60,946 nucleotides of DNA, taken from sequence record NZ_CP048040.1; one strand, given 5' to 3'. The stretch is from a plasmid. Made by a program: the position numbers and the translations under genes. Under the pieces are notes generated by a model. It saw only the letters and a list, made by a program, of their open reading frames with translations, was not told the origin of the DNA and searched no databases. Below, in pieces: positions 35,716 through 58,895 of this stretch; the first letter of the stretch is position 1, and every line of letters starts with the position of its first letter.

Positions 35716-36114
35716 ATGAGTATTGCAAATATCTCGATCAACACTGGCGAAGACCAGTACAAACGCCACAAGCAAATCCTGTTTTTTGTGGTTCTGATGG
35801 TAGCCATGTTTCTGCTGGCTGTGAACACGTCGCACGCAGGGGCAGGGGGGCTTGAATTTGAAGAAATCTGGCAAACCTTAAAAGAGTGGACTCAAGGTAC
35901 GCTGGGCCGGATCATTGCCGGTGCGATGATCCTGATCGGTATTATTGGCGGCATTGCTCGTCAGAGCTTGATCGCGTTTGCCCTGGGCATTGGTGGTGGA
36001 ATCGGTCTCTACAATGCACCAGACATTATCGAGTCGATCCTTTCCGCTACGCTTGAGCATGCAGCTGCCATATCCACGACAGTGCATCACCTTGGCAACG
36101 GTTTGGGGATTTGA
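35716..36114 (+). CDS. candidate conjugative pilin (TraA/TrbC-like)
   Basis: 132 aa, two hydrophobic Gly-rich helices, position after traV. Confidence 0.45.
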   Translation: MSIANISINTGEDQYKRHKQILFFVVLMVAMFLLAVNTSHAGAGGLEFEEIWQTLKEWTQGTLGRIIAGAMILIGIIGGIARQSLIAFALGIGGGIGLYNAPDIIESILSATLEHAAAISTTVHHLGNGLGI

Positions 36115-36165
36115 AAGCCACTCTTAAAGCCCGTGTTTGATGGCAGACAAGGCCAGAAGCAATTA

Positions 36166-36190
36166 CCGCCCTTCGGGGCGGTTTTTTTTT
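36166..36190 (+). terminator. rho-independent terminator CCGCCC-ttcg-GGGCGG + T9
   Basis: Perfect 6-bp GC stem followed by T-run, 50 bp after pilin stop. Confidence 0.55.
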
Positions 36191-36296: not shown

Positions 36297-36401
36297 TGGG
36301 CTACGTAAAGAGGGTGCCTAGAGCAGGGCGTAATCGATGGGCACTAAGTTTGATAAGCATCCTGGGTTGCCTTTCAATGAGTACGGCCGCATTTGCAGAA
36401 G
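36297..36401 (+). pseudogene. 5' fragment of a secreted-protein gene truncated by IS26
   Basis: AGGAGA SD, MGYVKRVPRAGRNRWALSLISILGCLSMSTAAFA signal peptide, reading frame runs into IS26. Confidence 0.45.
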
Positions 36402-37216
36402 GGCACTGTTGCAAATAGTCGGTGGTGATAAACTTATCATCCCCTTTTGCTGATGGAGCTGCACATGAACCCATTCAAAGGCCGGCATTTTCAGCGTGAC
36501 ATCATTCTGTGGGCCGTACGCTGGTACTGCAAATACGGCATCAGTTACCGTGAGCTGCAGGAGATGCTGGCTGAACGCGGAGTGAATGTCGATCACTCCA
36601 CGATTTACCGCTGGGTTCAGCGTTATGCGCCTGAAATGGAAAAACGGCTGCGCTGGTACTGGCGTAACCCTTCCGATCTTTGCCCGTGGCACATGGATGA
36701 AACCTACGTGAAGGTCAATGGCCGCTGGGCGTATCTGCTACCAGGCCGTCGACAGCCGGGGCCGCACTGTCGATTTTATCTCTCCTCCCGTCGTAACAGC
36801 AAAGCTGCATACCGGTTTCTGGTAAAATCCTCAACAACGTGAAAGTGGCAGATCCGCGATTCATCAACACAGCGGGTAAAGCGCCCGCCTGGTCGCGCGC
36901 GCGCTGCTCAAACGCGAAGGCCGGTGCCCGTCTGACGTTGAACACCGGCAGATTAAGTACCGGAACAACGTGATTGAATGCGATCATGGCAAACTGAAAC
37001 GGATAATCGGCGCCACGCTGGGATTTAAATCCATGAAGACGGCTTACGCCACCATCAAAGGTATTGAGGTGATGCGTGCACTACGCAAAGGCCAGGCCTC
37101 AGCATTTTATTATGGTGATCCCCTGGGCGAAATGCGCCTGGTAAGCAGAGTTTTTGAAATGTAAGGCCTTTGAATAAGACAAAAGGCTGCCTCATCGCTA
37201 ACTTTGCAACAGTGCC
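36402..37216 (+). mobile_element. IS26 (IS6 family), copy 1, divergent/frameshifted
   Basis: Termini GGCACTGTTGCAAA ... TTTGCAACAGTGCC; internal Tnp26 homologue broken into ORFs 36447-36842 and 36970-37164. Confidence 0.85.
36465..37164 (+). pseudogene. tnpA: IS26 transposase, frameshifted
   Basis: MNPFKGRHFQRDIILWAVRWYCKYG... then frame breaks after WAYL. Confidence 0.7.
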
Positions 37217-38247
37217 GTGAATTAACCCTGTTTTATTTGTTACGGATAGTCATCTCAAGGATTGAGTAATGGCGTTAATAACCGCTTGGCAGATGCTTCG
37301 TAAGGGCATAGTCAAGGCGCACAGGTGGGCTTTTGAGGTGATCGTGAGGTCACAGGGGAATGAGGTGTTAAACTGGATTTCTCGGCACGTCATGGTGAAT
37401 TGCTGAATTCGTAGAGATACGTTGCAATTTGCTCTGGCGGTCAATGGATAGCTCAAGCCTGTAAGGTCGGCTCTGTCAACACACAACTATAGAATAGTTG
37501 ATGGCAGTCGATATGCGTAGAGTAAGTGCTTTACCTTATTGATTTAACTAGACAATATAACCCCGACAAGACTTGGAACTGCGGTTGGGTGAACATGGAA
37601 TTGAGTTTAGTTAAGTTAGAGATAAGCGTACTACTCATCAAGACAAATAAGACTAACGTGGGCGCACTTCACACCGTTTGAGTTGTAGATATTTAATTTC
37701 TGATTGATTAGTTCACAGAAAAGCGATTCTAGGCAAACAACGAGGTGGTGATCGGTGACGATCTTTAGAAGTGTTAGAGAATCAGACAAGTACAAAACCC
37801 TTAATCTTTAAGGGTTGCAGTCACTCCGAGCGAATAAAAACGTAAGTGGTGATAATTGGGAAAGTCTATGCCGATAAGTTGGTGATGTTTAAGGTGATTG
37901 AAAACAGATTTTTTTCGGTAATATTCGAGTGGTATCAACATGCTTTGGCTAGCATGATTTACCGAAAAAACTGTCTTAAAACGATTCTACAATCGTGAAA
38001 ATTAGTTGTCTTGGCAGACAATGATATTTTCAAACTGTCGTTGCAGTATAAATACGTACAAATTAGCGGTTTTTAAGAACCCAGTCCTCTTTAAGAGGCT
38101 GGGTTTTTCCACTCAACAACTAGAATTCATTTAATTGCCCACCATTTGCGTTTTAAGCGATTTTTAAATGCACAACGTAGGGTAGATTAAAAAAATAATA
38201 AAAACCTCCATAGTGCCGCTTTTTTTGCGTTTAATCGCTATCTTTAA

Positions 38248-38361
38248 CGAGTGTCTACGAGTGACACAAAGAAAATTCGCTTACTCCCCTCTCTGAAAAA
38301 CCGCTTTTGCTTTTTTTAAATTACTGGAGATAGTTTTTAGCGAGTGTCTACGAGCGACACA
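38248..38361. repeat. two copies of 21-bp element CGAGTGTCTACGAG(T/C)GACACA, each an internal inverted repeat
   Basis: 38248-38268 and 38341-38361, in ORF-free AT-rich leader upstream of rep. Confidence 0.45.
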
Positions 38362-38570
38362 TTGAAGCTTTTGCTTTTCAAAAAGTATGAGCATAGCGAA
38401 TACATTATCAGTGCTTTTGACTTTGCTTTTGCTCTTGAAACGACACGAGCGAAGCGAGTGCCATAGCCTTTGATTTTTATTCTTTTGGGCTTTTAATATA
38501 TTTTAAAGCTTTTAAATACTTTTAGACTGGATGAAATCCGCACAGGGCTTGGGATACAGCTAGTATATGA

Positions 38571-38650
38571 CACCAAATTCTATTAGATAAAGCACCAAAT
38601 TCTATTAAATAAAACACCAAATTCTATTGATTTAACACCATAAATAAAAT
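38571..38650 (+). repeat. Rep_3 iterons: about 4 direct 22-bp repeats (core CACCAAATTCTATTA)
   Basis: Copies at 38571, 38593, 38615 and a degenerate one at 38636, just upstream of rep. Confidence 0.75.
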
Positions 38651-38687
38651 ATGGTGCTAAATATAATAATGCAATTGTATTTTTAAT

Positions 38688-39635
38688 ATGAAAAATGAAT
38701 TAATAGTTAAAGATAATGCTCTGATTAATGCTAGCTACAATCTTGAGTTAACCGAACAAAGGCTCATTTTATTAGCGATCATGTCTGCAAGAGAATCTGG
38801 ACTAGGTATTACAGCGGACAGTACAATTGAAATACATGCAAAAGAGTATGCCGACAGATTTAACGTAACAATTGATGCTGCATATAAAGCTCTTAAAGAA
38901 GCAGCTAATACTCTTTTTGAAAGAAAATTTTACTATACAAAACAAGTACATGATTACCCGCAACTAAAAATATATATGTTTAAATCTCGTTGGGTTAGTC
39001 GGATTGCATATGCCGATGATTTTGCAACACTAGCAATTACTTTTGCTCCAGATGTAGTACCACTGATTACTCGACTAGAAGAACGGTTTACATACTACCA
39101 ATTCAAGCAGATAGCTCAGCTCACCAGTAAATATGCAATTCGCTTGTATGAATTACTGATTGCATGGCGTGAGATTGGTAAAATGCCACTTATTGAATTG
39201 TCTGATTTTCGGAAAAAAATAGGTGTTGAACCTGATGAATATCAAAGAATGGAGTTATTTAAAAGGCGTGTATTAGAACCGGCAATTAAACAAATTAACG
39301 GACACACTGATATAACTGTGTCGTATGATCAACATAAAAAAGGACGTACTATTTCAGGCTTTTCATTTAGATTTAAACAGAAGCAACAGCCTAAAATTGA
39401 AAAACTGATTGATCCAAAGCGCGACACTAATACTCCTGATTTTTTTATCCAAATGACCGATGCACAGCGCCATCTATTTGCAAATAAAATGTCTGAAATT
39501 CCCGAAATGTCTAAGTATTCACAAGGAACCGAAAGCTACCAACAGTTTGCTATTCGTATTGCAGATATGCTTTTACAACCTGAAAAATTTAGGGAACTTT
39601 ATCCAATCTTAGAAAAAGCTGGATTTAAGAGATAA
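38688..39635 (+). CDS. rep: Rep_3-family replication initiator (Acinetobacter RepAci type)
   Basis: Typical Rep_3 sequence; iterons upstream; about 30% GC. Confidence 0.8.
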   Translation: MKNELIVKDNALINASYNLELTEQRLILLAIMSARESGLGITADSTIEIHAKEYADRFNVTIDAAYKALKEAANTLFERKFYYTKQVHDYPQLKIYMFKSRWVSRIAYADDFATLAITFAPDVVPLITRLEERFTYYQFKQIAQLTSKYAIRLYELLIAWREIGKMPLIELSDFRKKIGVEPDEYQRMELFKRRVLEPAIKQINGHTDITVSYDQHKKGRTISGFSFRFKQKQQPKIEKLIDPKRDTNTPDFFIQMTDAQRHLFANKMSEIPEMSKYSQGTESYQQFAIRIADMLLQPEKFRELYPILEKAGFKR

Positions 39636-39641
39636 AAAACA

Positions 39642-39977
39642 ATGAATAAAAATACTTTTATCAAAAAATTCTTAGAAACTTATGTAAATACAACCACAAA
39701 TCACCCTGATGAATCATACGACCACATAGATTTTGATGTAATGATTAGTCCCAAATATGAAAATAGAAGCTGTATTGCTGTATTTTCAGGTGATCATGGA
39801 ATATTCCCGATTATTTTAGAAATAACAGATAACCCATACCATATGGAACTTGGATATATTGATGTCTTTCTAATTTCAAATAAGCCAGTCAGAAGAAGTA
39901 AAAAGCAACGTGACTTATTGAAGTTAATTATGAAATATCTACAAGAAAATAGTTTGCTGAAATTTAGTCATGACTAA
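39642..39977 (+). CDS. small protein downstream of rep (111 aa)
   Basis: Conserved position in Rep_3 plasmids. Confidence 0.5.
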   Translation: MNKNTFIKKFLETYVNTTTNHPDESYDHIDFDVMISPKYENRSCIAVFSGDHGIFPIILEITDNPYHMELGYIDVFLISNKPVRRSKKQRDLLKLIMKYLQENSLLKFSHD

Positions 39978-39981
39978 ATTT

Positions 39982-40288
39982 TCAAGAAATTTGTTGTGAT
40001 GTATGTAAAACCCTCAAAATACGCACATTTTCAGTAATGTCATACACCACAACATAGTGAGGATGAACAACTAACTCTCTTGTTCCTTTTTTCTGTCCAG
40101 TTCTCCCCATGAGATTATTATGAGCAAGCAAACTAACTTTTTCCCGAATTAAATCATCCAATTCAATTGCAGCAATTGGATTTCTTTCATCAAGATAATC
40201 ATAAATTCTTTCACGATCTTGTTCTGCATCTACGGTCCAAAGAATCGACGTAAAATGACAATTAAGTATTTTTAGAAAATGCTTGGAA
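39982..40288 (-). pseudogene. RelE/ParE-family toxin gene, 5'-truncated (no start codon), in frame with aphA6 stop
   Basis: Minus-strand translation ...FTSILWTVDAEQDRERIYDYLDERNPIAAIELDDLIREKVSLLAHNNLMGRTGQKKGTRELVVHPHYVVVYDITENVRILRVLHTSQQIS*; upstream in-frame codon is the aphA6 TGA. Confidence 0.55.
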
Positions 40289-41068
40289 TCAATTCAATTC
40301 ATCAAGTTTTAAAAAATAATTCCTTTTGTCAGGTCTATCATTTTTTAAATGCTTTAAAAATATTTTAGCAGTTTCCTCCGATGCATCCTCTCTTAGGCAA
40401 CGTTCAACAAAGGATATATCTACAAACTCATCTGCTAACCCAGCACGGCCAAGATCTAAAAAATAAATTTCATTGAATTTATCTATAAAAATATTACTAT
40501 CCGTGATATCGCCATGAGAAAAAACCAATCTTTCTTCAACACGAGTCTCATTTAACTCATTCCATAGACTTAGGTAAGTTTTATGGTCTCCCCATAATTC
40601 AGCGTCAAAATCATCTTGATCTATATCATCAAGGAGTTGGTTATCAATAAAAAATTTTGACTCTTTTAACCGATGATCAATGTTTGAAATAAATGGACAA
40701 TCAATAATAGCAATTGAATTTAACAGATTGAGTACCTCCTTATAGATAGCAAGCAATTCTTGGTCTGTTAAAAAAAGCGCTGAAATTGGTTTTGCATTGA
40801 TCGCTTTAGTGATCATGAATTCAAACTGCTCATCCTGAAAAGTCATGATGAGTTCAGGCACCTTTAACTTCTCAGAGAGCCAACTCAACATTTTCGCTTC
40901 ACGAGAAACACTGTATGTGGTCGCTGTATATAAAGTGCTAGATCGCTTAAGAAAAAAAGTTTCATTATTTCGATTAAAAGAATAAACATCCGATGGCGAC
41001 TGACCAATTTTATTTGGCTCTAAAACGCTGTTTCCAATAAATTGTTGAATAATATTGGGCAATTCCAT
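40289..41068 (-). CDS. aphA6: aminoglycoside 3'-phosphotransferase APH(3')-VIa
   Basis: Near-identical to APH(3')-VIa along its length (MELPNIIQQFIGNSVLEPNKIGQSPSDVYSF...). Confidence 0.9.
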   Translation of the reverse strand: MELPNIIQQFIGNSVLEPNKIGQSPSDVYSFNRNNETFFLKRSSTLYTATTYSVSREAKMLSWLSEKLKVPELIMTFQDEQFEFMITKAINAKPISALFLTDQELLAIYKEVLNLLNSIAIIDCPFISNIDHRLKESKFFIDNQLLDDIDQDDFDAELWGDHKTYLSLWNELNETRVEERLVFSHGDITDSNIFIDKFNEIYFLDLGRAGLADEFVDISFVERCLREDASEETAKIFLKHLKNDRPDKRNYFLKLDELN

Positions 41069-41216
41069 CAAGCTTTCCTTTTATTCAGTATTAAAAACCC
41101 CGCAAATGCGAGGCCTAGTAAATAGATGATCTTAATTTGGTTCACTGTAGCAAAAATATGGCTTATTCCCTAGAAGAACTTGCAAAATTATTGTCCCAGC
41201 CGACACAGCTGTAGCT

Positions 41217-41241
41217 CCTCTTAAAAAAGAGGCTTTTTTTT
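41217..41241 (+). terminator. hairpin CCTCTT-aaaa-AAGAGG + T-run
   Basis: Stem-loop followed by 8 T. Confidence 0.4.
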
Positions 41242-41421
41242 AATCAAACCCGAGTTGCGCTATGATTTTAGGGATCAATCATCTTGTTTCTCCATATCTT
41301 AAACAAGCTGATGCGTTGACCTGTGTCAAATATTCAATCATTAAGCACTTAATCAATTGCCTTGTCGTCACCTCAAAAGTCGCATCAATTGATCGGCTGT
41401 TTGAGCAATCAAACCAAACAT

Positions 41422-41443
41422 GGGGGCACCTCAGAAAACGGAA
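41422..41443. repeat. left 22 bp of a Tn21-family 38-bp IR, interrupted by an IS
   Basis: GGGGGCACCTCAGAAAACGGAA; remaining 16 bp AATAAAGCACGCTAAG at 42771-42786. Confidence 0.75.
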
Positions 41444-42770
41444 TCTATGGTCACTCCCGTTTTTGCAACACCGATTTTGACGACAAGTTGGCTTGCTTGA
41501 ATCTATCCGGCGTCTGAATGGGATTTTATTCCCGCGCCTTGATGAGTTCCGCGCCTGATGAACCTCCAGAAAATATACGGCTTCAATGAGCCTTTCCGTT
41601 TTACAGGTTCCTCAACAGGCCGGTGGGCCGTTAGTATCATCAATATCAGTATTCGCAAAACCAGATCAGTAATTCTTTAAACCGGTGTATTTCTGCCGTT
41701 ATGCTACATAAGTTTGCTGTCGTGCCGTTAGGGCCCAGGCTATTCTGGCCAGCTTGTTTGCCAGAGCACAAGTGACGACAAAGTTGCTTTTCCGGCACAG
41801 TAAATCCCTGACCCAATCGGCCAATTTGCCAGACTGGTGTTCCAGTTTTTGTATGAATACCCTGGCACATTGAACCAACAAAGTTCGGATCTTTTTATTA
41901 CCTCGCTTACTAATTCCCAGCAATGTCGTCCTACCTCCCGTGCTGTACTGCCGAGGTACAAGCCCTGTTGCCGCCGCAAAGTCACGGCTGCTGGCGTACT
42001 GCTTCCCGTCGCCAATCTCAGTTGAAATAGTACTCGCTGTCAGTGTTCCGACGCAGGGAATGCTCAGCAAGCGCTGTCCAACCTCATCTTCGTCCAACTT
42101 TCGTTTCAACTGGGATTCCAAATCTTTAATCTGCTCAACAAGATAGTGATAATGCTGTTGTAATTTCAGCAATAACTGGCTGAGGTAAAGAGGCAAACTA
42201 TTATCCTCAAGAATGGTACTCAGTCGGCTAATAACGGCAGCTCCTCGGGGAACGCTAATGCCAAATTCCAGCAGAAAAGCATGCATTTGATTGGTTGTTT
42301 TTACCTTATCCTGAACCAGGGATTCACGGACACGATGCAGAGCCCGCATTGCCTGCTGAGATTCCGTTCTGGGCTGCACAAAACGCATAGACGGACGCGA
42401 TGCAGCTTCACAAATAGCTTCGGCGTCGACAAAGTCGTTTTTATTGCTTTTAACGAACGGGCGGACAAATTGTGGTGATATCAGCTTTGGGGAATGCCCC
42501 AACTCTTCCAACTTGCGTGCCATAAAGTGAGAACCGCCACAGGCTTCCATTGCGATGGTTGTAGCGGGGCATGTCGCCAAAAATTCGATCAACTTTGGCC
42601 GGGTAAATTTTTTACGGTAAACAGCCTTCCCGCGACGATCCTGGCAATGAATATGGAAAGAGTTTTTACCCAGATCGATACCAATGAGCGCAATGTTTTC
42701 CATGATAGTTCTCCGAATGAAAGCCTGTCCTCAGCATAGTACCGGGAAGGAGGGAGTGACCATCTCATTA
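41444..42770 (-). mobile_element. IS1111-family element, IS4321/IS5075-like, exactly 1327 bp
   Basis: Splits the 38-bp IR between GGAA and AATAAAG; intact 334-aa IS110/IS1111 transposase MENIALIGIDLGKNSFHIHCQ... Confidence 0.8.
41699..42703 (-). CDS. IS110/IS1111-family transposase (334 aa), intact
   Basis: Uninterrupted ORF with conserved N-terminal DEDD-type region. Confidence 0.8.
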   Translation of the reverse strand: MENIALIGIDLGKNSFHIHCQDRRGKAVYRKKFTRPKLIEFLATCPATTIAMEACGGSHFMARKLEELGHSPKLISPQFVRPFVKSNKNDFVDAEAICEAASRPSMRFVQPRTESQQAMRALHRVRESLVQDKVKTTNQMHAFLLEFGISVPRGAAVISRLSTILEDNSLPLYLSQLLLKLQQHYHYLVEQIKDLESQLKRKLDEDEVGQRLLSIPCVGTLTASTISTEIGDGKQYASSRDFAAATGLVPRQYSTGGRTTLLGISKRGNKKIRTLLVQCARVFIQKLEHQSGKLADWVRDLLCRKSNFVVTCALANKLARIAWALTARQQTYVA

Positions 42771-42786
42771 AATAAAGCACGCTAAG
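42771..42786. repeat. right 16 bp of the interrupted 38-bp IR
   Basis: AATAAAGCACGCTAAG followed by the tnpA C-terminus on minus strand. Confidence 0.75.
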
Positions 42787-45285
42787 CCGGTTGCAGAGGC
42801 CGTAGCGGCCTGAACTTCCCCGCGCCGATCTTGGCGCTGCTGCGCCATAGGTAATCACCGGTCAGGTTGATGTGCTCCCAGCCGAGTGGCGACAGGTACT
42901 GCAATAGCGAGTCATCGACGGCATGACCATTGCCGCGCAACCTGCGCCTCGCCCTTGTTCAACCCGGCGTACACGCGGCGGCGTAGCTCGACGCTTTGCA
43001 GCCGATCGAGGATGAACAGCGTGCGCTCGATGCAGCCCAACTCGCGCAGCGCGACGATAAGCCGTTCTGGCGCGGTAACTGCCGAGTTTCCTGAGCATCA
43101 GCAGGCCGTCACCGTGCCCTGCTTGATCGAGGTGGCCAGCCGCGGATTTCGTCCCAATGGGCGCGGACGTGCTTGATGTTGAGCGTTCGCCGATCATCGG
43201 CAGGCGCGTCATAGAGCGGCATCGCCCTTCCGGGATGTAGAGCTTGGTGTCGCCCGTCGCGGATGCGCGGCGCCCAAGCAGGAAGCCCAAGAGGTGCGCA
43301 TCAGGGCGAAGACGTGATCGAGGTGAAGCCCGCCGTGTCGTGTAGTGCTCCTCGATCCGCAGGTCGGATTCGTGTACAGCAGGCCGTCGAGCACGTAGAG
43401 TTGAGGTCGCGCAAGCCGACATTGACCACTGCTGGTGTGGAATGGCGCGTATTGGTCGGAGATGTGGGTGTAGAAAGTCCGTCCTGGGCTGCTGCCATGA
43501 TTTTGGAGTTGATGTGCCCCGTGCTCTTTGCCTTGCTAGCGGGGTTCCGGAATTCTGTCCGTCCGATGATGATGTGGTGCCATCGCCCCAGTGCCCGGCA
43601 AAGGATGCCGAAACTGAGCGTTGACAGTTCAGCCAACGCTGTCGAGTACGTTTCGTCGCGGGTATGCCGAGGCTTGCAGCCAAGCGAGCTTCGCGCGCAG
43701 GTCGTGCCGGGGCAGGACTCGGCCATCTTGAGGTCAGGCCAGGTTGATCGCGTCGGCCGGGATCGTGGTCAACAATAAGGTTCTTGTCCTTGGCCAGATC
43801 GCCCGATTTCAGAGTGCGTGAAGTGCCGGGTGAAGCCCGTCCTCATCGACTTCGAACAGTTCGGTGATCTTGACGTGCGGCAGGACCATGGCTGTCTGGT
43901 CTATCAGCGCCTGCGCGGTATCGGAGCACCACCGCATCCAGCGGCGTGATCTTCAAGCCCGACTCGGTGATGATGGCATCCGGCAGGTCGTTGGCTGCCG
44001 CCATGCGGTTGACGGTGGCTTAGTTGTGCTTCCAGCAGCGTCAAGCCCGCTCCATACGAGATATTGTTCGCAGTCGGTGGCCCGACCGGCGGCAATTCGC
44101 TGGAACTGCCCAGGCTGGTGAACTTCTCGAGGTACCAGGTAGTCCTCGAAGTCCTTGAACTGGCGTGAACCCTGCGCAGATGTCGCCCGAGCGCAGAGTT
44201 CTTCAACTCCGGACAGCGCGCACGTTCGTAGTAGCGCCGGTCGATGCCGGCGTCGGTCATCACCAGTTTCTGCCAGCGCGGCGGTGAAGCCGGTCGGGGT
44301 GCATCGGCTGGCAGCTTGCGGGCGTTGTCGGTGTTCATGCCGCGCAGCACCTCAATGGCATCAAAGCACGTTTTTTGGCGGCGGGCGCAGCCCGCAGCGA
44401 ACACGGCAAGGAATTCCGGTGCATAGCGGCGCGAGATTGGCGTAGCTCTCGCCGATGCGATGCAGGAAATCGAAGTCATCGGGTTGCGCGAGCTGCGCCT
44501 CGGTGACGCTCTCGGCAAAGAATCAGGACATGACGGCCTCGATGGCGGCAAACGCATCGCAGCCTGATTGCTGGCGTCGATGGCGCGCCTGACCGATGCG
44601 CCCGGCACAGACGATACCTTGGCGTTGATGGCCTTGCCTGACGCCTGGAACTGCTGCTGATGCTTATTCTTGGCAGCGTTAAACAACACAGGATGCGGTC
44701 GTGCAGGTCGATGATTTCGTCATTGACGGTGGCCACATGCCCTCGGTGGCCAGCGCCACGAAGAGTGGCGCGTAGCGCCGTTGCGGCTCGGGTGGCCAGG
44801 TCGGCGGGTGTCATCTGGCCGCCCTCGCGAACAATCTTGAGCAGGCGGTTCTGGTGAACCAGCCGCTCGATGCCAGTAGGCAGATCAGTGCCTACCATGC
44901 CTTGAGGCGTTCGATGTGTTCCAGCATATGCCACGAATTTGGCTTGGCCGGAGGCGGCGCAACCAAGCCAACCAGGTCGTCTTGCCGTTGTCCCGGCGCC
45001 CCGAGCAGATCGTCGAGGCGGCGGCGATGCGCGTCCGCCAGTGGTTCGGCCAAGGCGTCGTAGATGCGCCGGTTAGCACGGGTGATCGCCTCGGCACTCG
45101 CCCGCTCGACGGCGTTGAGGGCGGGCAGAATGACCGACTGCCGCCGCAGGTGCCCGATCAAGGCGCTGGCCAGCACGATGCCTTTGTCGGTTTGCATCGC
45201 CAGCTCGGTCAGCATCTGGACGGCCTGCCGGTAATGGCTCATGGTGAAGGGCCGGAAACCGAACACGGTTTGCAGCTCGCTCAGG
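42784..45285 (-). pseudogene. tnpA: second, inverted Tn21/Tn501-type tnpA remnant, truncated by IS26 at about codon 107 and heavily frameshifted
   Basis: Minus-strand TnpA homology from SELQTVFGFRPFTMSHYRQAVQMLTELAMQTDKGIVLASAL down to ...YLWRS; about 190-bp deletion relative to the 600-3033 copy. Confidence 0.7.
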
Positions 45286-46103
45286 GGCACTGTTGCAAAT
45301 AGTCGGTGGTGATAAACTTATCATCCCCTTTTGCTGATGGAGCTGCACATGAACCCATTCAAAGGCCGGCATTTTCAGCGTGACATCATTCTGTGGGCCG
45401 TACGCTGGTACTGCAAATACGGCATCAGTTACCGTGAGCTGCAGGAGATGCTGGCTGAACGCGGAGTGAATGTCGATCACTCCACGATTTACCGCTGGGT
45501 TCAGCGTTATGCGCCTGAAATGGAAAAACGGCTGCGCTGGTACTGGCGTAACCCTTCCGATCTTTGCCCGTGGCACATGGATGAAACCTACGTGAAGGTC
45601 AATGGCCGCTGGGCGTATCTGTACCAGGCCGTCGACAGCCGGGGCCGCACTGTCGATTACATCTCTCCTCCCGTCGTAACAGCAAAGCTGCGCGCACGGT
45701 TTCTGGGTAAAATCCTCAACAACGTGAAGAAGTGGCAGATCCGCGATTCATCAGCACGGATAAAGCGCCCGCCTATGGTGCGCGCTTGCTCTGCTCAAAC
45801 GCGAGGCCGGTGCCCGTCCTGACGTTGAACACCGACAGATTAAGTACCGGAACAACGTGATTGAATGCGATCATGGCAAACTGAAACGGATAATCGGCGC
45901 CACGCTGGGATTTAAATCCATGAAGACGGCTTACGCCACCATCAAAGGTATTGAGGTGATGCGTGCACTACGCAAAGGCCAGGCCTCAGCATTTTATTAT
46001 GGTGATCCCCTGGGCGAAATGCGCCTGGTAAGCAGAGTTTTTGAAATGTAAGGCCTTTGAATAAGACAAAAGGCTGCCTCATCGCTAACTTTGCAACAGT
46101 GCC
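45286..46103 (+). mobile_element. IS26, copy 2, same orientation as copy 1, divergent/frameshifted
   Basis: Termini GGCACTGTTGCAAA ... TTTGCAACAGTGCC; Tnp26 homologue in ORFs 45331-45822 and 45857-46051. Confidence 0.85.
45348..46051 (+). pseudogene. tnpA: IS26 transposase, frameshifted at positions different from copy 1
   Basis: MNPFKGRHFQRD...WAYLYQAVDSRGRTVD then frame break. Confidence 0.7.
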
Positions 46104-46357
46104 CTGTCAGGATGAGTGCGGTTTACGTGTAAAGACCTACAGCTTAGGAGTAGTCTTATGGAGTTGCGCCCTCTGGAATGACCCAAAACTGGCACTTTAA
46201 ACGCGGGTTACGTGTCATGTTGCTGATTGATTTATACCTTCTGTTGATAATCAGAAGGAACAAACCGTTTTCAGCTTTGTTTTTCTCAGGGCCCGAAACA
46301 GAAAATAGGAAGAAAGTGGAGTTTCATTTTAGAAAATCAACCAAATCCAATTTTTCA

Positions 46358-46500
46358 ATGTACCAAATATGTGGAATATTAATCACATATAAAAATTTCC
46401 GGTTTCATTTCTATAACAACATTCCACATATTTGGTACATAATAGGTAACATGGCTCATTTGGTACATTGGATTGTTATCACCACCTTTGGTACATTGAT
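46358..46500. promoter_or_regulatory. operator-like array: 20-bp inverted pair TGTACCAAATATGTGGAATA / TATTCCACATATTTGGTACA plus two more TTTGGTACATTG copies
   Basis: 46358-46377 and 46420-46439 perfect inverted copies; 46460 and 46490 direct; 50 bp upstream of gene at 46552. Confidence 0.45.
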
Positions 46501-46551
46501 TCTATGTTCCAGATAGATAGTAATTTGGAAAGGTACTGGATAGGAGTAATA

Positions 46552-47100
46552 ATGATGGGCGACGTCCAAAATCTTGACGTTATACGAGACTGGGAACACC
46601 TTAGCAGGACAAACGAAACGTCAGAACGCGACGATGTGACATCGGATGAACTTGATTCTGTAGGACGTACTTTCGTCCAGAATGTACGTGACCTTGTTGA
46701 ACAGGAACTTTATGTTGTTGCGACAGATGCACGGAAGGCGGCAGACATTTTTTGGGAGATCAACCAAGAGGTCAGGGAATCGGGCGTTGCCGGTGAACAA
46801 GGCTACTTCGGTACAAGAGTACGCGTGCTGAACAAAAGCATTGCAGCGACGTGGCACAAAAATCGCTTTGTGCCAGGACCAGGTGATAAGAAGAAAGTAT
46901 TCTCGACACATCTCGAGAAAGGTTTGGGCCCTCGTTATCCGACAAAGACATTTAAGGGCGCACGTGACTGGGAGCTTGAGGCGATACAGGTCACTGAAGA
47001 CAGGTATTCATTGCTTCGACAACGATCGAATGCTTTGTCAAAAATCCGCAGAGCCCTTTCAGAATATGAGCGTCTTTTAGACAAGTGCTATCAGGAGTAG
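46552..47100 (+). CDS. hypothetical protein (182 aa)
   Basis: ORF from MMGDVQNLDV. Confidence 0.5.
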   Translation: MMGDVQNLDVIRDWEHLSRTNETSERDDVTSDELDSVGRTFVQNVRDLVEQELYVVATDARKAADIFWEINQEVRESGVAGEQGYFGTRVRVLNKSIAATWHKNRFVPGPGDKKKVFSTHLEKGLGPRYPTKTFKGARDWELEAIQVTEDRYSLLRQRSNALSKIRRALSEYERLLDKCYQE

Positions 47101-47103
47101 GAA

Positions 47104-47391
47104 ATGACTACGCGAAATGCTTCTGCGGTTTCAAACGTTGCTTGGCGTCTTTCTGGTGCCCAACAGCGTTTAGGCACGACATACGAAGGGAAGCCAGCCC
47201 TTTCATCCATTAAAGCTTCTCAGGCTCGTTTACGTGGTGATATGGAACATATCTCTCATGAGTCAGCAGTGAACCGATATATGCAAGCTGATGCTCGCCG
47301 TACACATCGCCATACAAACGCAATCTTTGGATTTTTAGCTGCCACGGTTTTCGGTGTGATCGGCGCAGTCTACTTGTTTGTTCTTTCGTAA
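47104..47391 (+). CDS. tail-anchored small protein (95 aa, C-terminal TM)
   Basis: C-terminal AIFGFLAATVFGVIGAVYLFVLS. Confidence 0.45.
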   Translation: MTTRNASAVSNVAWRLSGAQQRLGTTYEGKPALSSIKASQARLRGDMEHISHESAVNRYMQADARRTHRHTNAIFGFLAATVFGVIGAVYLFVLS

Positions 47392-47414
47392 CACCGGGGG
47401 GAGACTTGAGAAAC

Positions 47415-48506
47415 ATGAGCAAGAGCAAGGGAGTAGCGGTAGTCGAAGTTGTTGACCACGTCGACGGCGAGAATATCGAGCTGCGAGAGCAGCTTAATTT
47501 GTTCGAGTACGTTGACTCAGATCTACGACGACGCAAAGAGTATTCAAACTCTGTAGACCTGTATGACAGCCTACCTAAGTACAGCTGGGACCAGCGTGAG
47601 ATTGAAGACGTCCAAGAAGCCAGCCGCATCCGTTGCATCAAGCTCGGAGGCCAGGAGTACCAGATTGAGGTTACACCTGCGGTGATCACGCGGGACAAGC
47701 GCAAGGTTTTCGTTTTTCCAAGTGCTCGTGAAGAGCTTGTTGAGGAGGCCTTGCGTAAGTTTGTTGTAGACGGACAAGGGACTGCTCACGGCGGTGAAGT
47801 CGGCGTATTCTTCACAATGTACCAACTGCAAAAAGAACTTGCAGAAAACGGCCGTACCTACAGCTTAACTGAGCTATCCGAAGCGTTAGAAGTGCTGAAT
47901 AAGGCAAACATCGAAATCTCAACGACGTCTGGTGATGCGGTCTTGAGCTCACCGCTGTTTCCAACGGTAGTGACAAGAAGCCGAAGTGAATATCTTAAGG
48001 CTCCCACGCAGTCAAAGTGTTACGCCCGCTTCAATGTGATGGTGACAGATTCCATCCTTAAACTTAAATACCGTCGCTACGACTACAAGCTTGGCATGTC
48101 GATCAAAAGCCACCTCGCTCGTTGGATTCACCGTCGGATGAGTCAAAACTGGACTCAAGCCAGCATAGACAAACCTTACACCTTCACCCAGACGTCTTAC
48201 CTTGCGGCCAGCCCTCGGGGGTTGTCCGAAACTATGAGCGAAAATACACGGGCGGTTAAGTCTGCGCTTGATACATTAAAGAAGCACGGTATTGTTGATC
48301 GCTACGATGCGGAGCCGGAAAAGGACGGACGCAAGATCATTGATGTCCGCTATCGTGTGTATGCAACCCAGGAGTTCGTATCGCAGACGATCTCCCACAA
48401 CCGTCACCGCAACGAATTAAGTGCCCATCAGTTCCAGGTGATGAAAAAGGGGCTGCAGAGAAGCAAGGGCAGACTTAGCCGCTCGAAGAAGGGTGAAGAA
48501 AGCTAG
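47415..48506 (+). CDS. candidate replication initiator (363 aa) of a second replicon
   Basis: Basic C-terminus; immediately followed by DnaA boxes and a large direct-repeat iteron array; no confident family assignment. Confidence 0.5.
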   Translation: MSKSKGVAVVEVVDHVDGENIELREQLNLFEYVDSDLRRRKEYSNSVDLYDSLPKYSWDQREIEDVQEASRIRCIKLGGQEYQIEVTPAVITRDKRKVFVFPSAREELVEEALRKFVVDGQGTAHGGEVGVFFTMYQLQKELAENGRTYSLTELSEALEVLNKANIEISTTSGDAVLSSPLFPTVVTRSRSEYLKAPTQSKCYARFNVMVTDSILKLKYRRYDYKLGMSIKSHLARWIHRRMSQNWTQASIDKPYTFTQTSYLAASPRGLSETMSENTRAVKSALDTLKKHGIVDRYDAEPEKDGRKIIDVRYRVYATQEFVSQTISHNRHRNELSAHQFQVMKKGLQRSKGRLSRSKKGEES

Positions 48507-48598
48507 CATCTGACTCACTCGCATTGATGCCCAATTGAATGACAGATCTGTAGCTGTTGTGGTTTACCTAGCGTTATCTCAGCACCATATACAACTTC

Positions 48599-48607
48599 TG
48601 TGGATAA
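48599..48607 (-). promoter_or_regulatory. DnaA box (TGTGGATAA = TTATCCACA on minus strand)
   Basis: Perfect 9-mer consensus. Confidence 0.5.
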
Positions 48608-48616
48608 CACCTCAAA

Positions 48617-48930
48617 ATACATATAGGTCTACTGCAGAGTTACCCTTACTCACACGCTAAACATATAGGTTTGATGCAGACAAACATATAGGTATGGTGC
48701 AGACTTCATTTTTCGACCAGTTATCCACAAGTAGAACATATAGGTTTATTGCAGAGTTAATATCCCCGTCCGTTTAAACCATATAGGTTTGCAGCAGAGT
48801 TCAAGTTGCCAGCCGCTAAACATATAGGTTTGTTGCAGAGATAAACTCAAAATTGTGGACAACCTGTGGCAACAGTACAACAACATATAGGTTTAATGCA
48901 GAGAAACATATAGGTATTTTGCAGACTTCA
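48617..48930 (+). repeat. iteron cluster 1: 8 direct copies of about 22 bp ACATATAGGTNTNNTGCAGAGTT at irregular 22-63 bp spacing
   Basis: Copies at about 48620, 48661, 48683, 48736, 48779, 48820, 48884, 48906. Confidence 0.7.
48721..48729 (+). promoter_or_regulatory. DnaA box TTATCCACA
   Basis: Perfect consensus inside the iteron cluster. Confidence 0.5.
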
Positions 48931-49265
48931 TGCCGAATATTTACTTCAATATCAACAAGTTATCTGCACTTTCCGTCAACCTATCCTGTTCTTATCCTTT
49001 TTTCCTTTTATATATCCAAATAAAGAATATCTGTCACTGACTTAGGAAGTACAGCCAAGGGGCATAGCCGAAGGAGCTTCAGCCTCTTTGCAAAATACAA
49101 TCTGCTTCGAGAACTGTCGAATCACTGTAAAGGCCCCACATGCGTTAAAAATGCATAAGCTAGGGGATGGTATTAACACTACCCTAAAAATCGAACACAG
49201 CACCGGAAAACAGGTTTCAAGCGCTATAGAGGTAGAGACCTCCCTCTCTTTGAATTTCAAAGCAA

Positions 49266-49290
49266 CCTCAGCACCCAAAACATGTAGGTT
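49266..49290 (+). repeat. isolated iteron copy AACATGTAGGTTTCATGCAGAGTT
   Basis: Same consensus. Confidence 0.5.
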
Positions 49291-50057
49291 TCATGCAGAG
49301 TTTGACCTAAGCCCTGGAGCATTCATCACGTAACCTGCCGTTAACACCATGTAAATTCCTAAGCAGATCTACCAAAGCAGATAAACGACAGCTTCATACC
49401 AGCCTGACAAAACCAATCATCAGGCCCCCGATCAACGCTCCACAAAATTTTTCAACACTAAATAATCCTGGCAAACGGATTCAGCTCCTACACAACAGAT
49501 ACCCAGGCAATTTCAATAACCATGCACTTCTCATGTTGGTATCGATCAATGCCATTTCAGTGCAATAAGTGCCACGCGAACAACACACTTAAAAAAATAG
49601 AAGCTAGCTTTTTGCATACTCCCAGCTACACCGGAAGAGAAAAATGAAAACAGCAACCACTGGTCAATAAACAAGGATGACTACTCCTAGCATCCAATCA
49701 AAAGACAAGTCACTACGGCAGCTCACATCTCCATCCACAAGGCATGCAAACCGCAAGAGCACGCATCACTGCAAACACGTCTACTGCATTAATGAATTAG
49801 CACATGAACGCTTCCCACATCGAACTTGGGTAAATACCTGGGCTCGGCTCTCGGATAAAACGGAAATCCTCTACGCCTCCAAAGGCACACCTTCACCAGA
49901 CCCACATCGGAGCAGTAAAACCATTCAGGAGCACATCGACCGGTCACAAATATGTCGCGTTGATCTGTTGACCTGTTGACGGAGATATCTATGATCCCCG
50001 GTTACTTCCCCGATTTAAGGGCTAATCATGCTTAATGAAGGTGGGTAATCCAGCCAA

Positions 50058-50870
50058 GTAACGACCTAAACATATAGGTTCATTGCAGAGTTCAAGCAAA
50101 GCTGCCAGGAAAAAAATCGAACGGAAACCTCAAAACATAGAGGTTTACTGCAGAGTTCCTGTGGTCGATCAAACATGCAGTGTTTTTGCTTTCAGAAAGC
50201 ATTCATACATATAGGTTCATTGCAGAGTTCGTCAAAAACATTCGTTCAGAACATATAGGTTTGATGCAGAGTTCATCTTGAACTCCAGACATCTTTAATT
50301 GTCAGAAGACATTGAACATATAGGTTTGGTGCAGACTTCAGTAGTACAAACAGCAACAAACTAACATATAGGTTTGTTGCAGAGTTCGCGTAAATCATTG
50401 ATTTTATTTAAAAAATCTATTAAAAAACGGTCGTAATTTTGCATTAAGTACGCTTGTCGTTGAACAGTCGGGTTAAAAGCGGGTTTCATGACCAATCCTC
50501 TCCCTAACTCAGTCGCCCAAAGATGCAATGACATATAGGTTTGTTGCAGAGTTCATAGGAGAACAAAGAACATCAACATGTAGGTTTACTGCAGAGTTCA
50601 TCTAACCTATTGAATAGAAAAGGTTTTTTTACTATTGCCTACCAGATCAACATATAGGTCTATTGCAGAGTTGACGCCTGAGTGTCGGGTTTGAAGCGGG
50701 TTAGCTGATATTTTTTCAGACTAACCATATAGGTTTACTGCAGAGTTAGACGCTTAACTGTCAGGTTTGACGCGCTTAAGCTGCTTTGTATGGCTAAACA
50801 GCAAACAAGAAACCCGCACGAAACCGTACAGTTTTGTGAGAGTCAAACATATAGGTCTCTTGCAGACTTG
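50058..50870 (+). repeat. iteron cluster 2: about 11 further direct copies of the same 22-bp unit
   Basis: Copies at about 50061, 50135, 50207, 50251, 50317, 50364, 50530, 50571, 50650, 50727, 50848. Confidence 0.7.
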
Positions 50871-51025
50871 ACGCCAAAACCGTGTTCACAAGTGGTTTTA
50901 ACGCAGTTGCGGGATAATGGTCTAAAAGGTTACAGTGTTACAGAAGAGCACGCGGGTGCGATACGCACATTCTTGCTGGATAGTGATGTGCACCAGGGAT
51001 AGAATTTATAGGCTCAACAACACAA

Positions 51026-51418
51026 ATGAAAAGAACAGCACCATGCGTGTTGGGACTGCATTCATTGGTCCAACCAATGAAGTGCTTCGCTGTGCGCATG
51101 AAAGAATTTGACGATCAGAACTTTCAGGAAGACGGCACGATGCTCTGGCCTGAAGTAGTGATCTGCTCAACTGCGGAGCAAGCTTATAGACTCTGTGAAT
51201 TCTTCAATTCTGAAAGTTTCAAAGTAGATTGGGAAACTTGGCAAGAGGAAGAACCAGACCTTACGGTAGATGTAGCTCAACAACGTTGGCTTGAACAAGA
51301 CTTTGCTATCTATGTTGTTGAGGAAGTGCCAGCGTTGCATAAGTACGAACATCTGTACCGAATTTCGCAAAGCCTCAGTGCTTGCTCTGATTTATTTGAA
51401 GATCTACTGTACGTATGA
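51026..51418 (+). CDS. acidic hypothetical protein (130 aa)
   Basis: ORF rich in D/E. Confidence 0.35.
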   Translation: MKRTAPCVLGLHSLVQPMKCFAVRMKEFDDQNFQEDGTMLWPEVVICSTAEQAYRLCEFFNSESFKVDWETWQEEEPDLTVDVAQQRWLEQDFAIYVVEEVPALHKYEHLYRISQSLSACSDLFEDLLYV

Positions 51419-51625
51419 CCCTGATGCATTTCCAGGGAGGCAGGTGATTACATTAGGCACCAGCGCATACCTTCCTTTATTGATGTTCCACCTTATCTTA
51501 AGTGATTCGCACATGGCCACAGCGAGATATTGTTGTGCCCTGGCTTTGCTGTTGCCATGGAACATTGGGATGAAAACGCAGAGAAGGGAATTAGAACGGG
51601 CTCCGCAATTTTGCGTGCCAATTTA

Positions 51626-51639
51626 TTTCGCATGCGAAA
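51626..51639. promoter_or_regulatory. palindrome copy 4, upstream of RES-Xre operon
   Basis: Identical 14-mer about 80 bp before antitoxin start. Confidence 0.6.
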
Positions 51640-51719
51640 TCTGCTCCGGAGTCTTTCACTTGTTTGCTTCAAATGATAGAATTAAAACCATCAATTGAAT
51701 GGTTTTAAGGAGAGCTATC

Positions 51720-52187
51720 ATGGAAATTATTGATGCTACAGTTGCGCCGACAAAACTCGGCGGTAAGACAGCGGTCAAAGACTTTTGGGGGATGGCTCAC
51801 CGTTTGGGAGGCATGAGTGAATTAGAGCGTATTCGGTCGATCAAAGCAGGGTTTCCCATCTACATGGCTGATGCCACCAAAAACACGTTCCGGATGACAA
51901 GTCAGAGCGTTAGCGAACTATTGAATCTGTCTGTGACCACGTACGAACGTCGTCGCCGCGATTCTAAGCCATTGGATGTTGCCGCATCTGAACGCCTAGA
52001 TCGTGTTGCGGCAGTTGCGCTCTTGGCCGAAGATGTTTTTGAGGACAAGACCGATGCGGCGGTCTGGCTTTCTTCACCAAACAAGGCTTTAGGTGGAAAC
52101 ACTCCCGTAATGCACTGCGAGACTGCGATTGGTGCTCAGCAGGTTAGGCGGATCCTCAATGCGCTTGAGTGGGGTGGTGCGGCCTGA
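51720..52187 (+). CDS. Xre-like/DUF2384 antitoxin of a RES-Xre module
   Basis: C-terminal VWLSSPNKALGGNTPVMHCETAIGAQQVRRILNALEWG typical of DUF2384. Confidence 0.65.
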   Translation: MEIIDATVAPTKLGGKTAVKDFWGMAHRLGGMSELERIRSIKAGFPIYMADATKNTFRMTSQSVSELLNLSVTTYERRRRDSKPLDVAASERLDRVAAVALLAEDVFEDKTDAAVWLSSPNKALGGNTPVMHCETAIGAQQVRRILNALEWGGAA

Positions 52188-52651
52188 TGATTGCGTGGAG
52201 AATTAGTAAGGCCAAGCGGGCAGGAGATTTGTCCGGGATCGGTGCTGCGCTCGAGGGTGGTCGTTGGAACGATGTTGATGTGCCAGCAGTGTATATGGGC
52301 ATGACACCAGCTATTTGTTGTCTTGAGACATTTGTACATGCAACAGGTGTGCCGCAGTTTCCGCTGAAAATTACGCGCTTCATCCTTCCCGAAGATGAGG
52401 CGCTTTTCTTTGAGCCGGAGCCTAATACTTTGCCAAATGGTTGGGCCTCAGTTCCGTCAGATCGCCCTAGTATGAATTTTGGTACCCGCTGGCTTAAAAG
52501 TCAGAGTCATCTTGGTCTGATTGTGCCTTCGGCTGTACTACCGCTTGAGCGCAACGTTGTGTTGAACCCTGCTCATCCAGCCATTGCAGATGTCAAAATC
52601 GACGCTCACTTTGAGTTCATGTACGACAAGCGCATGTTTGCGGGCCAGTAG
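52187..52651 (+). CDS. RES-domain toxin (NAD+-targeting family)
   Basis: GGRWN (Arg), CLETFVH (Glu), LIVPSAVLPLERNVVLNPAHP (Ser) RES signature; ATGA overlap with antitoxin. Confidence 0.7.
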   Translation: MIAWRISKAKRAGDLSGIGAALEGGRWNDVDVPAVYMGMTPAICCLETFVHATGVPQFPLKITRFILPEDEALFFEPEPNTLPNGWASVPSDRPSMNFGTRWLKSQSHLGLIVPSAVLPLERNVVLNPAHPAIADVKIDAHFEFMYDKRMFAGQ

Positions 52652-52665
52652 CCGTTTAGGGCCGC

Positions 52666-53073
52666 TCATAAACCAGGCTGCGAGTTGTTGCGTGAGGCTT
52701 CTAAAAGGCTGTGGGTCAATACTTCTGTTGACTCCAAAGCAATCGAACGTTCTTTGTTAAGTTTCATCAGCCGTGGCAAAAGGGAATCACATTCTTCTGC
52801 ACCTAGCTCTTTAATTTCAGGGCGGGCAGCGTGGTCGGTGATGAGGACTTCGACTAGCTCGACAGGAATGATGACATCTTCGCCCTGCAGACTGAAAGCT
52901 ACCTGAGCTTTGGAGCCTTCTGTAAAAACCTTTGCGGTGGCTTCGTCAGCGCAGTGGGCGACGATTCCACGGAACGTACCTTCAATAGCGGCAGCTTCCT
53001 CAAAGTTAAAGGCCTGAGCTGGCGTTATATATATTGCGCCTGTAATTACAAGAGCTGTCTGAATGCGCTTCAT
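52666..53073 (-). CDS. secreted hypothetical protein (135 aa)
   Basis: Signal peptide MKRIQTALVITGAIYITPAQA. Confidence 0.5.
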   Translation of the reverse strand: MKRIQTALVITGAIYITPAQAFNFEEAAAIEGTFRGIVAHCADEATAKVFTEGSKAQVAFSLQGEDVIIPVELVEVLITDHAARPEIKELGAEECDSLLPRLMKLNKERSIALESTEVLTHSLLEASRNNSQPGL

Positions 53074-53178
53074 AGCAGTGGACGTTGAAGATGGAACACA
53101 GAGGTGATTGTGGCCTACTGGATTGTGTGTTGCGGCTTATGGAGTAACCCTATTCAGCCCTTTCTAGTGGACGTACGA

Positions 53179-53192
53179 TTTCGCATGCGAAA
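53179..53192. promoter_or_regulatory. palindrome copy 5 (extended ACGATTTCGCATGCGAAATCGT)
   Basis: Perfect 22-bp palindrome between umuC stop and secreted-protein gene start. Confidence 0.6.
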
Positions 53193-53266
53193 TCGTTTTC
53201 ACAGTAGAGGCTCAATGACTGGTGCCATATTCAGTGTGCGCGAACGCACTGAACCTGGCCAGAGCA

Positions 53267-54577: not shown

Positions 54578-54993
54578 GTGACTACTCCCCAAACCGTCAG
54601 CTCCTGTGCAGGCTTCAGTTCAATGTTGGGAAACGTTGGATTGGCGGCGATAAGCCGCACAGTATGCCCCTTCCGATACAGTTGCTTTACCGTAAACTCG
54701 CCGTCAACGACTGCAACGATGATCGATCCATGCTTTGCTTCCAATGAACGATCAACGACAACATAATCCCCATCATCAATGCCAGCATCACGCATCGAGG
54801 GGCCGCGCACACGCATAAAGAATGTCGCATCCACTTGGTTGATAAGAAGCTGGTTCAAGTCAAGACGTTCTTGAGCGTGATCTTCTGCCGGACTTGGAAA
54901 GCCGCATTGCACGGTTGCAGCAGTCGACCAGGCCTGCCCCAGAGCATTGCTCAATGGCACAGGTTCATCAAGAGAGGTGTAGATTATATTCAT
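54544..54993 (-). CDS. umuD: UmuD-like S24 peptidase (LexA family) subunit
   Basis: S24 catalytic region GPSMRDAGIDDGDYVVVDR and cleavage-site region. Confidence 0.75.
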   Translation of the reverse strand: MNIIYTSLDEPVPLSNALGQAWSTAATVQCGFPSPAEDHAQERLDLNQLLINQVDATFFMRVRGPSMRDAGIDDGDYVVVDRSLEAKHGSIIVAVVDGEFTVKQLYRKGHTVRLIAANPTFPNIELKPAQELTVWGVVTWTLKRHTIGA

Positions 54994-55000
54994 GACGAAA

Positions 55001-55020
55001 TACTGTATGTAAATACAGTA
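55001..55020. promoter_or_regulatory. LexA/SOS-box-like palindrome TACTGTATGTAAATACAGTA (CTGT-N8-ACAG)
   Basis: Abuts the umuD start codon. Confidence 0.5.
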
Positions 55021-55103
55021 TTTTAGACTAGCTTGATCGTTATTTGTATTAGCAATACAGCAAATAAGACCTATCCAGCCATGAAAGGTGGGGCTTAATG
55101 CTG

Positions 55104-56306: not shown

Positions 56307-56345
56307 GGTCTCAGAGGCAATAAATGTAGACCTATTCTACCGTGG

Positions 56346-56745: not shown

Positions 56746-56769
56746 GCACTCCCGATTAATTGCTTAAAA

Positions 56770-58884: not shown

Positions 58885-58895
58885 GGAACGATGGT

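Follow-up and report, generated by a model that had tools for sequence, protein, structure and literature searches.

Two copies of the insertion sequence (IS) IS26 that bracket an amikacin-resistance segment on the plasmid of sequence record NZ_CP048040.1 differ from each other, which raises the question of whether they have really diverged and how the segment between them entered the plasmid. The window, i.e., the whole stretch of 60,946 nucleotides analyzed here, is a closed circle of about 61 kb, and both of its ends meet inside a mercury-resistance (mer) operon. An earlier note, made from the letters alone, had described divergent, independently frameshifted IS26 copies around a low-GC module of Acinetobacter type and had proposed a pseudo-compound transposon or a cointegrated small plasmid. 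Our analysis suggests that the locus is very probably an imperfectly sequenced resistance region of ordinary type, bounded by IS26, on a plasmid that arose from a pGZAF1_VIM-like Alcaligenes plasmid as a 61-kb deletion derivative. The supposed independent frameshifts are, in all likelihood, consensus errors in copies that are canonical or near-canonical. To judge from the genomes compared, the arrangement is new and its parts are well known.

IS26 copies and distribution of consensus errors

The two copies lie in direct orientation exactly where they had been placed before (Table 1), with perfect terminal repeats: the 14-bp sequence GGCACTGTTGCAAA has four exact matches, at 36402, 37203 (minus strand), 45286, and 46090 (minus strand). 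Both tnp26 frames are broken as written, neither copy contains a single intact 234-amino-acid (aa) Tnp26 frame, and the sequence differences quoted between the copies are present. The canonical 820-bp IS26 of pGZAF1_VIM, which encodes the standard 234-aa Tnp26, was used as the reference. Relative to it, 12 events were counted in the left copy, all of them within IS26 positions 336-552, and about nine in the right copy, all of them within positions 341-535. At positions 1-335 and 553-820 (335 bp and 268 bp at the two ends), both copies match the reference with 100% identity. Compared with each other, the copies agree completely up to ~340 bp from the start and again in the final ~265 bp, and about 30 alignment columns differ in between. 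With events distributed randomly over 820 bp, all would fall in the 217-bp interval with a probability of about 1e-7 for the left copy (0.2646^12) and about 6e-6 for the right copy (0.2646^9). The alignment to a reference and to each other that the earlier note had proposed thus bears out that both copies differ from the reference as written, with every event at positions 336-552.

Three events are common to both copies (G341A, one T lost from T5, and one C lost from CCC), two of them one-base homopolymer deletions. G341A, at window positions 36743 and 45626, corresponds to Tnp26 R93Q as translated. An exact 71-mer with this change was found in 16 of at least 5000 best-scoring PLSDB records, several of which have no annotated gene under the match. 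Either a rare true variant or a base-calling error that recurs would account for G341A.

The same noise was identified in other elements of the window that are typically multi-copy. Indel events numbered 63 in 2.5 kb of the tnpA gene of the resident mer transposon, 69 in 2.4 kb of the tnpA remnant in the module, 53 in 2.1 kb and 61 in 1.7 kb of the first and second mer segments, and only 4 in 26.3 kb of unique backbone. In these elements the indels span 1-3 bp, mostly with a bias towards deletion, and homopolymers account for about half of the deletions of a single base. The noisy stretches (57500-60946, 1-300, 1000-2800, and 42950-45000) show approximately 25-35 indel events per kb against every reference, so that no mer or tnpA reading frame is intact as written. 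Over the full length of this mer operon, none of the PLSDB plasmids exceeds ~93% identity; mer operons of this type are normally near-clonal. The IS4321, aphA6, and RepM regions, which are single-copy, are clean.

Error density depends on the distance from the nearest unique junction, and this dependence is the deciding result for an artefact. Errors per 100 bp amounted to 0.1 at less than 100 bp from such a junction, 0.5 at 100-200 bp, 2.0 at 200-300 bp, 4.8 at 300-400 bp, and 6.6-8.3 beyond 400 bp. Mutation cannot sense the distance from unique sequence; therefore, the pattern very probably reflects an artefact and not biology. Paired short reads of a few hundred bp cannot polish repeat interiors, and errors therefore rise with distance. 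The errors would thus be a consensus residue of long-read type, left in those parts of repeats that lie beyond the reach of short-read polishing anchored in unique flanks. Residual errors after short-read polishing have been reported mostly in repeats (PMC8812927). Within the mer transposon, a clean island (301-1000, 59-70% GC) spans the plasmid-specific urf2/tnpA deletion junction at ~571-578. The frameshifts of the IS26 copies, which the earlier note had taken as biological divergence, are confined to the middle 217 bp and belong to this general pattern. We ascribe the lengths of the copies, 815 and 818 bp instead of 820 bp, to such errors as well. The record is consequently unfit for inferring IS26, mer, or tnpA pseudogenes.

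Two other sources of noise were considered and rejected. GC-dependent sequencing error was ruled out by clean sequence of 59-70% GC beside unique junctions (301-1000, 45000-45285, 57300-57500, and 2801-3066). A chimeric consensus of diverged transposon copies was ruled out by the nature of the noise, which consists of 1-3-bp indels and not of substitution mosaics.

Several points weigh against our interpretation. The evidence for the artefact is indirect, as it comes from the assembled sequence and not from reads. The mer operon is noisy though single-copy in the plasmid, which needs a further mer copy in the host genome, and IS4321, which is often multi-copy, is clean, which needs a single IS4321 copy in that host. 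The G341A change in both IS26 copies could be genuine. Additionally, insertion of a translocatable unit as opposed to cointegrate formation followed by deletion, discussed below, is an order of events that we infer.

Relation to pGZAF1_VIM and formation of the IS26 region

The only relative of the window in PLSDB is pGZAF1_VIM (NZ_KY623659.1, Alcaligenes faecalis, 124,415 bp), a plasmid with a MobH/MobI(A/C)-type backbone and F-type mating-pair genes. In blastn comparisons, window 10106-36401 corresponds to pGZAF1_VIM 15996-42289 (99.3% identity, four indels), and window 46104-57229 corresponds to 123104-124415 followed by 1-9819. Altogether, 52 kb of backbone is shared at 93-99.3% identity in the same order, and pGZAF1_VIM also carries IS26 and a Tn21-family mer transposon. 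The tra operon had been called F-type before; the mating-pair genes are of F type, but the backbone is A/C-like with MobH/MobI and is not that of an F plasmid. Unlike pGZAF1_VIM, the window lacks the interval 42290-123103, has its mer transposon at a different site, and has gained the RepM-aphA6 module. Window regions 3069-4000, 7738-10105, and 56000-57229, which are AT-rich and variable parts of the backbone, have at least 14% mismatches to pGZAF1_VIM or no counterpart in it.

The IS26 pair and its cargo replace pGZAF1_VIM 42290-123103 (~81 kb), which holds traC, trbC, traU, traN, traF, traH, traG, and the VIM-4 integron region. The left IS26 had been described as cutting the tra operon just after the pilin gene and its terminator; a hairpin is indeed present 3' of traA, but IS26 sits 25 nt into the next gene. 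The Pfam TrbC/VirB2 match of traA is weak (26.4 bits against a cut-off of 27.9). The right IS26 adjoins DNA just upstream of mobI. The window keeps a RepB-like initiator, parAB, mobH, mobI, traD, and traL-E-K-B-V-A. Judged by this gene content, the plasmid should have lost self-transfer, and it might be mobilisable by a related helper.

The outer flanks of the pair are TGCAGAAG on the left and CTGTCAGG on the right, and the inner flanks are GTGAATTA (right of the left copy) and CGCTCAGG (left of the right copy). Comparison of these four 8-bp flanks revealed no 8-bp duplication around the whole structure or around either copy, in agreement with the earlier note, and no reverse-complement relation as a sign of inversion. 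Pseudo-compound transposons and translocatable units of IS26 (IS6 family) are described by the model of Harmer and Hall. An 8-bp duplication is expected after IS26 copy-in and not after conservative insertion or deletion. Because the outer flanks lie 81 kb apart in pGZAF1_VIM, no target duplication is expected here.

The region resembles an IS26 pseudo-compound transposon in its two direct copies, its perfect terminal repeats, and the resistance segment of Acinetobacter origin between them. One IS26 together with the segment would make a translocatable unit of approximately 8.9 kb, and the missing duplication fits conservative insertion beside an existing IS26 or an adjacent deletion. To this extent the layout proposed earlier holds; however, the flanking 8-bp duplication of such a transposon is absent, and the same unit was not found elsewhere in PLSDB or the JGI metagenomes. 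In particular, the left inner IS26 junction was not found in PLSDB, the search with the right inner junction gave only two-piece, non-contiguous matches among those listed, and the JGI metagenomes contained no exact 30-mer spanning either inner junction.

From this layout we infer how the cargo reached the plasmid and in what order IS26 acted. In one route, a translocatable unit consisting of one IS26 and the 8.07-kb segment would have inserted conservatively beside an IS26 resident in the backbone; in another, a cointegrate would have formed and then undergone deletion. Adjacent deletions mediated by IS26 would have removed ~81 kb, beginning in the second codon region of the Ig-like gene and stopping just short of mobI. 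Each route yields two direct IS26 copies without an 8-bp duplication. The IS26 of pGZAF1_VIM (83506-84325) has the same orientation and lies inside the replaced interval, and the first route is therefore plausible.

A competing explanation is that the IS26-bounded arrangement is itself an assembly artefact, in which wrong joins through IS26 produced the 8-kb module, the 81-kb 'deletion', or both, and the module has its true place elsewhere in the host genome. The assembly is clearly of low quality within repeats, the inner IS26 junctions were not found in either collection searched, and the 145-bp gap in tnpA described below lies at the edge of a noisy zone, all of which would suit such a misjoin. 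Nevertheless, about 300 bp on either side of all four IS26 junctions are clean, suggesting that short reads and pairs span the junctions, and errors differ between the interiors of the two IS26 copies, as they would if each copy had its own long-read pile-up. Moreover, the set of replication, partition, and relaxase genes is complete on the 61-kb circle that results. We therefore regard misassembly of the arrangement as improbable.

Origin of the segment between the IS26 copies

The segment between the copies is 8,069 bp long (37217-45285) and contains, in this order, a fragment of a RepM small plasmid, aph(3')-VI, an IS1182-family remnant, a Tn21-family inverted repeat (IR) split by IS4321, and a truncated tnpA. 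Its reported low GC content applies to 37217-41400 (~33-44%) and not to 42800-45285 (~62%).

The Rep_3 initiator with 22-bp iterons named in the earlier note was confirmed by Pfam, NCBIfam, and Tandem Repeats Finder. RepM matches the Pfam domains Rep3_N (WH1, 121.9 bits) and Rep3_C (WH2, 73.5 bits) and the NCBIfam family repM_Acin (470 bits against a cut-off of 250), and iterons lie directly upstream of the gene, as in Rep_3/RepM replicons. In a public gene-position collection, 2070 blocks contain the identical RepM protein. In PLSDB, no record contains the rep region (the best matches are 73% over repM and 93% over 893 bp), and a one-genome-per-species search yielded only two relatives, at ~75% identity. 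Identity of the fragment amounts to 98-99% with the free plasmid in metagenome assemblies (L011-L013 and L015) and to 99.5% with loci L008, L010, L016, and L017. The free plasmid in L015 (540-12981; ENA ERZ15232921) is a tandem assembly with a period of 6,142 bp and carries rep, orf111, a full-length 89-aa ParE toxin gene, and five more small genes, without aphA6; L011-L013 are similar. The search for the segment as a free small plasmid, suggested earlier, thus succeeds for 37217-40246, whereas the remainder of the segment is not part of that plasmid. Compared with the small plasmids, the window lacks the five other genes, which were cut away by IS26. At the position of the truncated toxin gene, an 87-aa ParE_toxin is called in L008-L010, L014, and L016.

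The presence of aphA6 was also confirmed: the gene is aph(3')-VI, with an NCBIfam score of 589 bits (cut-off 525) and annotated genes that are 99.9% identical in nucleotides, and the region is predicted to give amikacin/kanamycin resistance. The IS4321-like element and tnpA remnant were recognized correctly as well. The IS4321 transposase frame is intact (334 aa, 41699-42703, minus strand; 99.7% identity to L005) and matches the IS110 family in Pfam and NCBIfam (341 bits in the latter). As is characteristic of the IS4321/IS5075 group, the IR is split after nucleotide 22, at 41443 and 42770. The tnpA remnant is of the Tn21 family. The right IS26 has cut off its first ~103 codons, another 145 bp are missing internally, and small indels abound in its interior. 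The missing 145 bp (L005 4522-4666) are gone at 42944-42948, with a 5-bp overlap where clean sequence turns noisy; the gap could be a microhomology deletion or an assembly join. The IR half beside IS4321 (41422-41443) reads GGGGGCACC..., the IRmer spelling, whereas the tnpA side of the resident mer transposon (3045-3066) reads GGGGTCGTC.... Since the spellings differ, the tnpA end of the module comes from another Tn21-family transposon than the resident one.

Most of this mosaic occurs in other genomes. Window 37217-41421 has no substitutions over 4.2 kb against L008, L010, and L016, and the sole difference is one 22-bp gap in the iterons. One 22-bp unit more is present in L008 (about 9860-9950), L009, L010, L016, L017, and the free plasmids; this may be real variation or a collapsed repeat. 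In L008, rep, orf111, the truncated ParE gene, and aphA6 lie between two IS1182-family copies inserted in a chromosomal mscL. The region 4000-13800 of that locus (GCA_013418355.1, VPCG01000018.1) holds a whole RepM plasmid with aphA6 between direct IS1182-family copies, whose transposase genes are at 4195-5313 and 12681-13799, and the halves of mscL are called on either side. The unit in L008 is a composite transposon carrying a plasmid replicon. The module shares with Acinetobacter RepM plasmids and with this unit repM, orf111, the iterons, the truncated ParE gene, and aph(3')-VI, and differs from them in having one iteron fewer and in keeping no more than 249 bp of a single IS1182-family copy. 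Acinetobacter plasmids contain the full IS, where its annotation is IS1182 family.

In L016 and L017, the rep-aphA6 unit adjoins IS4321/IS5075 and Tn21-family sequences, and L017 matches the window through 42786, across the junctions of aphA6, the IS remnant, the inverted repeat, and IS4321. The rep-aphA6-IS4321 unit is widespread elsewhere without IS26. The earlier note had taken a segment contiguous with other flanks and without IS26 as evidence against its proposal; this situation is found in part, in L008, L010, L016, and L017. Because the mosaic exists in genomes without these IS26 junctions, it predates the cutting by IS26. Comparison with these loci shows a build-up in three steps. A 6.1-kb Acinetobacter RepM plasmid first gained aph(3')-VI and an IS1182-family element; the resulting unit then came to adjoin the end of a Tn21-family transposon whose IR holds IS4321; and IS26 finally cut the mosaic at 37217 and 45285. 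The contexts of aphA6 described by Yoon et al. 2014 (PMC4212838) name ISAba125, ISAba14, and ISPa14. The context found here differs from them in the remnant of a ~1.4 kb IS1182-family element and in having IS26 as the outer boundaries.

This composition also bears on the proposed cointegrated small plasmid, in which IS26 would have joined a whole small Acinetobacter plasmid directly to the large plasmid. A direct IS26 pair around a replicon is the classic product of copy-in cointegration. However, just 3,030 of the 6,142 bp of the RepM plasmid are present, the fragment is fused to aphA6, the IS1182-family remnant, IS4321, and a Tn21-type tnpA as in loci free of IS26, and no 8-bp duplication is found. 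A direct cointegrate of the whole plasmid is therefore very unlikely.

Equally far-fetched is true decay of both IS26 copies after insertion, each with its own frameshifts and substitutions and with the module fossilised in place: the tnp26 frames are broken as written and the copies differ from each other, but neutral changes would scatter, and the outer 603 bp contain none of the ~21 events. No biological mechanism gives ~10% divergence in the center of an element whose ends show 0%. Furthermore, mer and the two tnpA copies show the same noise with the same dependence on distance, and a cargo free of substitutions against its relatives over 4.2 kb leaves no time for decay.

Annotated features and the resident mer transposon

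The features of the IS26 region and of the adjoining backbone are listed in Table 1.

Table 1. Features of the IS26-bounded region and its flanks in the window
Feature	Coordinates	Strand	Remarks
traA (pilin-like), last intact tra gene before left IS26	35716-36114	+	pGZAF1_VIM traA, 41604-42002
Terminator-like hairpin (36165-36182) with T8 tail, downstream of traA	36165-36190	+	
First 25 nt of Ig-like-domain gene (pGZAF1_VIM 42265-47859), cut by left IS26	36377-36401	+	blastn map ends at 42289
Left IS26	36402-37216	+	815 bp, perfect 14-bp ends, tnp26 frame broken as written
RepM small-plasmid fragment (origin region, repM, orf111, partial ParE/RelE gene)	37217-40246	+	3,030 of 6,142 bp
Iterons, 3.3 copies of 22-bp unit	38570-38640	+	Tandem Repeats Finder; end 48 bp upstream of repM
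repM, Rep_3 initiator, 315 aa, intact	38688-39635	+	Pfam, NCBIfam
orf111, conserved repM partner, without family match	39642-39977	+	
Truncated ParE/RelE toxin gene	39982-40245	-	Small-plasmid homology stops at 40246
aph(3')-VI, aphA6-type amikacin/kanamycin phosphotransferase, intact	40289-41071	-	NCBIfam APH_3p_VI
IS1182-family terminal remnant, 249 bp, Acinetobacter	41173-41421	.	100% identical to both IS ends in L008
Tn21-family 38-bp IR, outer 22 nt (GGGGGCACCTCAGAAAACGGAA), split by IS4321	41422-41443	+	
IS4321, IS110 family	41444-42769	-	Boundaries inferred from split inverted repeat
IR inner part and Tn21-family (TnAs3-type) tnpA remnant	42770-45285	-	Aligns to L005 4353-4521 and 4667-7011
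Right IS26	45286-46103	+	818 bp, perfect 14-bp ends, tnp26 frame broken as written
Backbone resumption, mobI region	46104-47414	+	pGZAF1_VIM from 123104, blastn 99.2%; Pfam MobI 46468-47100

Additionally, the window contains a resident Tn21-family mercury-resistance transposon (57235-60946 and 1-3066). Its 38-bp IRs are perfect (57235-57272 and 3029-3066), and the target duplication on either side is the 5-bp AAACA (57230-57234 and 3067-3071). The insertion point corresponds to pGZAF1_VIM 9819/9822, which is not the site of the mer transposon of pGZAF1_VIM itself. An internal deletion joins urf2 to tnpA at ~571-578, and the integron, tnpR, and the 5' part of tnpA are therefore absent.

Implications

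The repM gene and its iterons appear to add an intact-looking second replicon to the plasmid. If the captured replicon were functional, the plasmid would be a two-replicon shuttle able to replicate in Acinetobacter, and the half-plasmid with aph(3')-VI would be a replicon-carrying cassette that widens host range; we consider this doubtful, with an outside chance of being correct.

These results suggest that, when a normally clonal IS has 'divergent' frameshifted copies in a plasmid that looks finished, the first check should be whether the differences depend on the distance to unique sequence. Taken together, the locus would represent one more route by which an Acinetobacter amikacin-resistance unit enters an Alcaligenes-type A/C-like plasmid, and it may serve as an example of IS26 stripping transfer genes from a plasmid.

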